Positions 25,517-25,944 of a stretch of 64,000 nt of DNA are shown here, one piece after another. Position 1 is the stretch's first letter. Each line of letters begins with the position of its first letter. The notes beneath the pieces are model-generated. The model was not told where the DNA came from. It did no database searches and saw nothing but the letters and a program-made list of their open reading frames with translations. The DNA is from Escherichia coli (lineage in GTDB: Bacteria; Pseudomonadota; Gammaproteobacteria; Enterobacterales; Enterobacteriaceae): the NCBI RefSeq assembly GCF_003334815.1, contig NZ_QOWO01000008.1. One strand, written 5' to 3'. A program made the translations under genes and the position numbers.

Positions 25517-25704
25517 GTTATGAATTTAGCCAAAGCTATGTTTAGTGTATTTTTAATAATCAGACATAGCTTAGGCTATATTACCTCTTCCCTTATTTGT
25601 TATTTATTTTAACGTTTCATTGATATATAAATCCAAATGAAAATCGTTATCAATAAAGCAATGAAATAATATATTCCAACAGTTGTTTTATATTCTCAAA
25701 ATAT

Positions 25705-25835
25705 GTTAAGGTTGCGCCCTCATTTGGGGAGTAGCCGATTTCCAGATTCCGGAAATGTACGTGTCAACATACTCGTTGCAAAACGTGGCACGTACGGACT
25801 GAATACTTTCAGTCAGGCGAGACCATATGCACATC
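25705..25835 (+). promoter_or_regulatory. yybP-ykoY family Mn2+ riboswitch in mntP leader
   Basis: Conserved GGGGAGUAG (25726-25734) and CAGGCGAGACC (25814-25823) elements in a long 5' leader upstream of mntP. Confidence 0.6.
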
Positions 25836-25944
25836 AATCGCTATGCCTGCATGAACGCGAAAACCATCACGGCTTGTTGTTCATGTATGCATGTTTGCTG
25901 GGGGCGATGATGTGTTTTATGGATACCCCGGTCAGGACATTGTC

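Follow-up and report, generated by a model that had tools for sequence, protein, structure and literature searches.

The Mn2+ riboswitch of the Escherichia coli mntP leader: comparative support for its switch and a match to RF00080 below the gathering threshold

The Mn2+ riboswitch upstream of mntP (yebN) in Escherichia coli is an already known element, whose ligand, structure and physiology have all been published. Its aptamer is a four-way junction for which an apo crystal structure has been determined (PDB 4Y1M; Price et al. 2015 and Dambach et al. 2015, as cited in PMC12153347). In the account of Stephen et al. 2025, A11 in loop L1 makes a cross-helix A-minor contact, A48 in loop L3 stacks beneath it, and P1.1 is the switch helix. 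Co-transcriptional probing in the same study found L1 and P1.1 disrupted in a transcript of approximately 205 nt, solely in the absence of Mn, which leaves P1.1 free for another pairing within the expression platform. A study by Prakash et al. 2024 (PMC11647493) reported 9–16-fold induction by Mn from a constitutive promoter, Rho-dependent termination in the mntP leader and early ORF, and relief of this termination by Mn, including in a purified system.

The copy considered here is in a 64-kb stretch of E. coli DNA, referred to throughout as the window; features are on its plus strand unless stated otherwise, and window positions are NC_000913.3 positions minus 1,879,743. The segment from 25500 to 26520 matches E. 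coli K-12 MG1655 with 100% identity and was found in 5423/5426 complete E. coli genomes. The gene order is manZ, yobD (25058–25516) and mntP (25945–26511), followed by rlmA and cspC on the minus strand. According to the RefSeq annotation of two K-12 records, mntP encodes a Mn2+ exporter of 188 aa (Pfam PF02659), and in the 80 orthologs found by tblastn the match begins at the ATG equivalent to that at 25945. The riboswitch is located in the 428-nt spacer between the yobD stop codon and the mntP ATG, and its last base directly precedes the ATG. This placement, in the 5′ leader of a Mn2+-homeostasis gene, is kept in 78 orthologous loci.

The transcription start site was positioned by reference to the published numbering. 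Only with +1 at 25720 do A11 (in L1, 25730) and A48 (in L3, 25767) both fall on adenines, and the 5′ UTR would therefore be 225 nt. An initial annotation of the window, made from the sequence alone, had described a Mn2+ riboswitch at 25700–25944 in a leader of more than 200 nt. The length holds for the 428-nt spacer and, if +1 is at 25720, for the 225-nt 5′ UTR as well. The element and its assignment to the mntP leader were also correct, but the interval was too generous at its 5′ end, as 25700–25719 is promoter sequence that precedes the transcript, and the aptamer proper occupies 25721–25829.

A putative weak sigma-70 promoter at 25683–25712 was recognized from the sequence and from the likely +1. 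It consists of a −35 element TTGTTT (25683–25688), an 18-nt spacer and a −10 element TAAGGT (25707–25712). A promoter consensus scan returned no match at this position. A weak promoter fits with the reported dependence of mntP expression on the activator MntR. Further upstream, window positions 25521–25584 include a 19-nt inverted repeat (25523–25541 and 25564–25582, 89% complementary), and the region from 25523 to 25582 produced spurious miRNA-family matches on both strands. The repeat resolves to two palindromic boxes, TGAATTTAGCCAAAGCTATGTTT and AGACATAGCTTAGGCTATATTAC, that are approximately 140–200 nt upstream of the likely mntP +1. Each is identical at 17/23 positions to a palindrome in the mntH promoter, AAACATAGCAAAGGCTATGTTT, which we take to be the MntR operator. 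Exact half-site cores of the boxes were present in 5/70 orthologs. The AT-rich promoter region also contains a 19-mer, CCAAATGAAAATCGTTATC (25633–25651), that resembles the Fur consensus at 14/19 positions, a marginal match (p ~0.04 relative to shuffles); regulation of mntP by Fur is mentioned in the literature.

Both hallmark motifs of the family were confirmed at the places given in the initial annotation. GGGGAGTAG (25726–25734) and CAGGCGAGACC (25814–25824) each occur once in the 64 kb, where 0.13 and 0.04 matches, respectively, are expected by chance. They are in the right order, 88 nt apart and upstream of mntP. A third core motif, the L3 sequence CAACAUAC, is found between them at 25765–25772. 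When the RNA from 25720 to 25832 was folded alone it formed a four-way junction with a free energy of −38.5 kcal/mol (z = −3.54), and 0/200 shuffled sequences folded as well.

The junction, composed of P1.1/P1.2, P2, P3 and P4, is present in the minimum free energy (MFE) fold and is supported by covariation. In this fold, the 5′ strand of the switch helix P1.1 (25721–25727) pairs with 25823–25829, leaving U25724 and U25826 unpaired, and the outer pairs of the helix covary. Next to it, the 5′ strand of L1 is GGAGUA (25728–25733), part of GGGGAGUAG (25726–25734), which matches the RF00080 consensus exactly; the six bases are invariant in 73 orthologs and include A25730, the adenosine of the published A-minor contact. 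The 5′ strand of P1.2 (25734–25736) pairs with 25816–25818, with 100% of alignment cells paired and two rare double changes. The P2 hairpin (25738–25756) is 99.8% paired with changes on both sides at 3/6 pairs, the two helices of the P3.1/L3/P3.2 hairpin (25757–25795) are 99.7–100% paired and include compensatory changes, and the P4 hairpin (25797–25814) has changes on both sides at all seven pairs across the orthologs. The L3 region containing CAACAUAC (25765–25773) is an asymmetric internal loop of P3 that is unpaired in the MFE fold. Within it, the metal-binding loop ACAUACU (25767–25773) begins with A25767, the published A48, and is nearly invariant; the family consensus here is GUCAACAUACU. 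The 3′ strand of the aptamer (25816–25829), made up of the CAGGCGAGACC motif plus AUAUG, supplies the 3′ sides of P1.2 (25816–25818), L1 (GAGA, 25819–25822) and P1.1 (25823–25829).

Comparison with other species provided further support for this structure. Eighty orthologous mntP loci were fetched, and 73 distinct aptamers were aligned and scored on the E. coli structure. The three core motifs were found again in almost all 80 loci. Standard pairs occupied 96.5% of the aptamer cells across the 73 orthologs, compared with 25–43% when the partner was slid by one to three columns, and 19/36 pairs had changes on both sides. None of five observed covariation measures was matched by any of 500 shuffles. 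Compensatory changes support all six aptamer helices, including P1.1 and P1.2, and the outer pairs of P1.1 covary as UA/UG/CG and CG/AU. As these two helices include the 3′ strand, their covariation validates a part of the aptamer that is beyond the reach of the Rfam alignment. The sequences of L1, L3 and the GAGAC strand, on the other side of this pattern, are invariant or nearly so across the 73 orthologs.

The 3′ strand of P1.1 finds a second partner when the whole leader is folded. The MFE structures include a platform helix, H_A (25823–25842 with 25903–25922), that encloses a variable insert hairpin (25843–25892). At the base of H_A, the P1.1 3′ strand (25823–25831) pairs with 25913–25922, and 25823–25829 consequently has two alternatives, 25721–25727 in the aptamer or 25915–25922 in the platform. 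Because the CCAUA:UAUGG base of H_A uses the 3′ strand of P1.1, the two helices are mutually exclusive. In a platform alignment of 68 sequences, 94.9% of H_A cells were paired and 9/18 pairs had changes on both sides. The published 'riboswitching point' of ~205 nt corresponds to approximately 25924 in the window, where 25903–25922 is under synthesis. The forced base of H_A was more stable than the locked aptamer in 78/78 orthologs, by ~10 kcal/mol, although the constraint that locks the aptamer also bars all pairing by the aptamer loop nucleotides. The greater stability of the OFF fold fits with a default OFF state that has to be overcome by Mn and co-transcriptional kinetics.

The distance from the aptamer to the ATG ranges from 77 to 130 nt across the orthologs, as the insert can be present, absent or different, while the blocks that flank it are conserved. 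The insert is missing from many genera, in which the platform is 77–80 nt, and is of unrelated sequence in others. The E. coli form was found in 5405/5426 complete genomes, and the apex of its hairpin (about 25859–25870) has 12 extra nt relative to E. albertii, E. whittamii and the cryptic Escherichia lineages. In one E. coli MFE structure, the L1 segment AGUAGC (25730–25735) pairs with GCUACU (25957–25962), which corresponds to mntP codons 5–6; this is probably coincidental.

Identity with K-12, the position ahead of the annotated mntP gene, the fold, the covariation, the RF00080 matches of orthologs described below and the literature all agree with the Mn2+ riboswitch proposed in the initial annotation, and published structural, probing and regulatory studies of the E. 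coli mntP riboswitch bear out its description there as a known element. We conclude that the 225-nt mntP 5′ UTR very probably contains a yybP-ykoY-class Mn2+ riboswitch with an aptamer at 25721–25829 and a switch between P1.1 and H_A. In the proposed mechanism, the two legs of the four-way junction dock via L1 and L3 to create the metal site, their coaxial stacking and docking being reported from crystal structures, and binding of Mn2+ would stabilize P1.1, the switch helix that closes the aptamer. At low Mn2+, 25913–25922 would capture the P1.1 3′ strand and complete H_A, the thermodynamically favoured OFF fold, in which the leader would be poorly translated and Rho would end transcription within the leader and the first part of the ORF. 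At high Mn2+, P1.1 would withstand strand invasion during transcription, mntP would be translated, Rho termination would be partly relieved and more exporter would be made. The literature supplies the crystal structure, the binding of Mn2+, the activation of translation and the role of Rho. The motifs, the fold, the covariation of the aptamer helices and H_A, and the competition between P1.1 and H_A come from the present analysis.

The aptamer switch presumably governs access of the ribosome to the Shine–Dalgarno (SD) region, CAGGAC (25933–25938), whose AGGA core (25934–25937) is 7 nt before the ATG in a position that is conserved in orthologs. In the accepted model, the OFF fold masks the SD. 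Equilibrium folding of the E. coli RNA revealed no difference in SD accessibility between the free and aptamer-locked forms. Among 78 orthologs, the locked form was the more accessible in 39/78 with one 3′ boundary and 41/78 with another, and the forced-OFF and locked states were indistinguishable (0.50 vs 0.50). Direct occlusion of the SD is thus unsupported by nested equilibrium models, as three modelling designs yielded no consistent difference. In the in vitro probing of Stephen et al., too, reactivity at the RBS did not clearly depend on Mn, and the authors describe the RBS as dynamic. The resemblance of the SD region to the 3′ strand of the aptamer led us to consider the 5′ strand of P4 as an anti-SD, but P4 varies freely and, by eye, the SD does not co-vary with it, and this candidate was rejected.

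Two other accounts of how the switch produces its output were weighed. In one, which we regard as possible but not probable, the main output is Rho-dependent attenuation set directly by the conformation of the RNA, the Mn-bound fold hiding or removing a site at which Rho loads onto the leader, and the effects on translation are secondary. The purified system in which Mn restored run-off transcripts despite Rho contained no ribosomes, bicyclomycin raised reporter expression 23–28-fold, which is above the effect of Mn, and direct inhibition of Rho binding is among the routes that the authors name (Prakash et al. 2024, PMC11647493). The lack of an SD occlusion difference both in silico and by probing points in the same direction, as does the leader itself, in which no intrinsic terminator was found. 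However, translational fusions are regulated in the published experiments and the literature calls the element a translational riboswitch, and we identified no rut site. A direct effect on Rho would, moreover, refine the description of the same riboswitch rather than replace it with another element, and both routes can coexist.

The second account concerns a CCCCGGU box (25926–25932) that adjoins the 5′ side of the SD and has two candidate partners. The first is a platform loop or bulge, GCUGGGG in E. coli and ACUGGGG in most genera (25897–25903), that would form the 5′ strand of a helix here named H_B. The second is the released 5′ strand of the aptamer, UUUGGGG in E. coli (25723–25729) and GUUGGGG in orthologs, and the resulting helix is named H_C. 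Gating of the RBS by an exchange of partners at this box is a tentative proposal that we consider rather unlikely to be correct. With the switch OFF, UUGGGG of the freed aptamer strand would hold the box, and the RBS would be tethered at the foot of a 200-nt structure. With the switch ON, the box would pair instead with the platform loop ACUGGGG, and this pairing may form a pseudoknot with a shortened H_A.

The box and the loop are both near-invariant in the 68-sequence platform alignment, where the loop is unpaired in H_A, and H_B (25897–25903 with 25926–25932) is paired in 99.2% of cells. In the clade that includes Cedecea, Buttiauxella and Dryocola, all ten members examined have a CCCAAC box and a GUUGGGG loop, a coordinated change from ACU/GGU to GUU/AAC that affects two to three pairs. 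As all of the compensatory changes come from this one clade, they represent a single evolutionary event, and six additional loci from the Cedecea/Buttiauxella clade contributed no independent covariation. In 84 leaders, H_C pairs at 6.8 of seven positions and H_B at 6.9, with 4.1 and 5.7 Watson–Crick pairs, respectively. In the OFF ensembles, the first 10 nt of the leader share ~6.4 bp with the RBS window, and in one E. coli MFE structure GGGG (25726–25729) pairs with CCCC (25926–25929). Against these observations, invariant runs of G and C are uninformative, and the predicted accessibility of the SD is equal in both states.

Only 3–7 nt link H_A and H_B in species with short platforms, so the full-length helices are presumably unable to coexist there. 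An exchange of partners at the CCCCGGU box could thus link the aptamer to the RBS, but the support for this candidate is no more than suggestive. That the last step of the switch is something other than simple SD masking, with the box alternating between the aptamer 5′ strand (OFF) and a platform decoy loop (ON), seems to us doubtful. If true, a box with two partners could account for the lack of a Mn-dependent change at the RBS in both equilibrium folding and chemical probing. The accessible parts of the mechanistic papers, Stephen et al. 2025 and Prakash et al. 2024, make no mention of a two-partner CCCCGGU box. A metagenome scan with a DNA pattern for leaders with variant CCCC boxes listed 120 matches, all of which were chance occurrences in GC-rich coding DNA with no aptamer, and the matches listed by two protein searches for distant MntP orthologs were relatives that share at least 84% identity.

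Whichever route connects the P1.1/H_A switch to expression of mntP, the leader is most unlikely to encode protein. Two open reading frames overlap it, one of 81 aa that spans the aptamer (25703–25948) and one (25891–26511) that corresponds to mntP with 18 additional N-terminal codons, and the initial annotation had dismissed both as artefactual extensions. We agree that both are artefacts, but only the second is an extension; the first does not share the mntP frame and is simply spurious. In favour of coding, both frames are open and many database entries for MntP are 197–241 aa long. However, the ATG at 25703 is upstream of the likely +1, neither it nor the ATG at 25891 has an SD, and the RefSeq start, the ATG at 25945, is preceded by CAGGAC 6 nt upstream. 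An in-frame upstream start is absent from 22/78 orthologs, and the open in-frame stretch varies across the whole set from three to 86 codons. The lengths of the aptamer and platform differ between species by non-multiples of three, and the substitutions in the leader are base-pair compensatory and not codon-like. A stop-free frame across the aptamer was seen in 70/78 orthologs, but this is due to conservation of the core and is uninformative with regard to coding.

The match to the Rfam family needs separate comment. The initial annotation had proposed a search with RF00080 as a check and had named the lack of a match above threshold as grounds for rejecting the riboswitch. There was none. When the whole window was searched with cmscan at gathering thresholds, four families were listed and RF00080 was not among them. 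A permissive scan of 25500–26050 returned RF00080 as the top Rfam match, at 25718–25814, with a score of 41.6 bits against a gathering threshold of 45 (E = 7e-10). The aligned sequence agrees exactly with the consensus in L1 and L3, and the printed alignment reaches the end of the model (position 177 of 177) at 25814, which leaves the CAGGCGAGACC strand without any contribution to the score. All 20 Enterobacteriaceae mntP leaders tested matched RF00080, with scores of 35.5–57 bits, eight of them at 45 or more and 12 below. As the orthologs straddle the threshold, we attribute the low score to the sensitivity of the model and not to absence of the element. The threshold was badly chosen as a criterion, and the riboswitch interpretation stands and is supported. 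A chance or degenerate resemblance to the yybP-ykoY family, for which the absence of a match at the gathering threshold and the scores of <45 bits in 12/20 orthologs could be cited, can be set aside given the E value of the match, the covariation in all helices, core loops that are invariant across 73 species-level sequences, and the published experimental characterization.

The families that were detected elsewhere in the window include full-length Rfam matches to SraC/RyeA (43357–43501, plus strand, 175 bits) and its antisense partner SdsR/RyeB (43361–43460, minus strand, 114 bits), and a match to the sRNA sroD (8267–8359, minus strand, 105 bits). The cspA-thermoregulator model matched the cspC gene and its leader (27408–27868, minus strand, 135.5 bits); this gene is named cspE in one PGAP record and cspC in NC_000913.3.

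No riboswitch or other regulatory feature is recorded at the mntP leader in two K-12 RefSeq entries, NZ_CP032667.1 (annotated with PGAP) and NC_000913.3 (curated). When a 61-nt leader query was used to sample six E. coli records, the annotation of the matching sequence was 'none' in five and 'hypothetical protein' in the sixth. This is consistent with the use of the Rfam gathering score by annotation pipelines, and mntP leaders in enterobacteria probably lack annotation more often than they should. With no annotation to mark the leader, gene callers often place the start of mntP inside it. Among the matches listed, public MntP protein clusters were often 197–241 aa rather than 188 aa, for example P0001 (199 aa, 2231 members), which is labelled 'hypothetical protein'. 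Thus, in the best-annotated bacterial genome, a bona fide riboswitch that has been crystallized scores too low to pass the Rfam gathering threshold, and the RefSeq records examined do not list it. For the yybP-ykoY family, 'no Rfam match above threshold' is an unsafe test for refuting an assignment.

The element in the window does not differ from the described E. coli mntP (yebN) 5′ UTR riboswitch: the sequence is the same, with 100% identity to K-12, as is the gene context, and the A11/A48 numbering fits. To the published account, our analysis adds comparative support for H_A and for the two-partner box. Relative to the RF00080 family as a whole, the mntP element shares the L1 and L3 sequences, the four-way junction, the P1.1 switch helix and the association with a Mn exporter gene. 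It departs from the family model in its score of 41.6 bits, which is <45, and in a printed alignment that ends at 25814, before the 3′ strand of L1 and P1.1. The output also differs, as mntP regulation is translational and Rho-dependent whereas members in Bacillus and Lactococcus use an intrinsic terminator. The second yybP-ykoY member in E. coli is alx (ygjT), which is absent from the 64-kb window. It belongs to the same family as the mntP element, acts at the level of translation and controls a Mn exporter. However, alx lacks P2 and therefore forms a three-way junction, its L3 is different, its P4 contains an intrinsic termination site, and it responds at alkaline pH. The mntP element forms a four-way junction and is reportedly not activated by the modest rise in Mn that occurs at alkaline pH.
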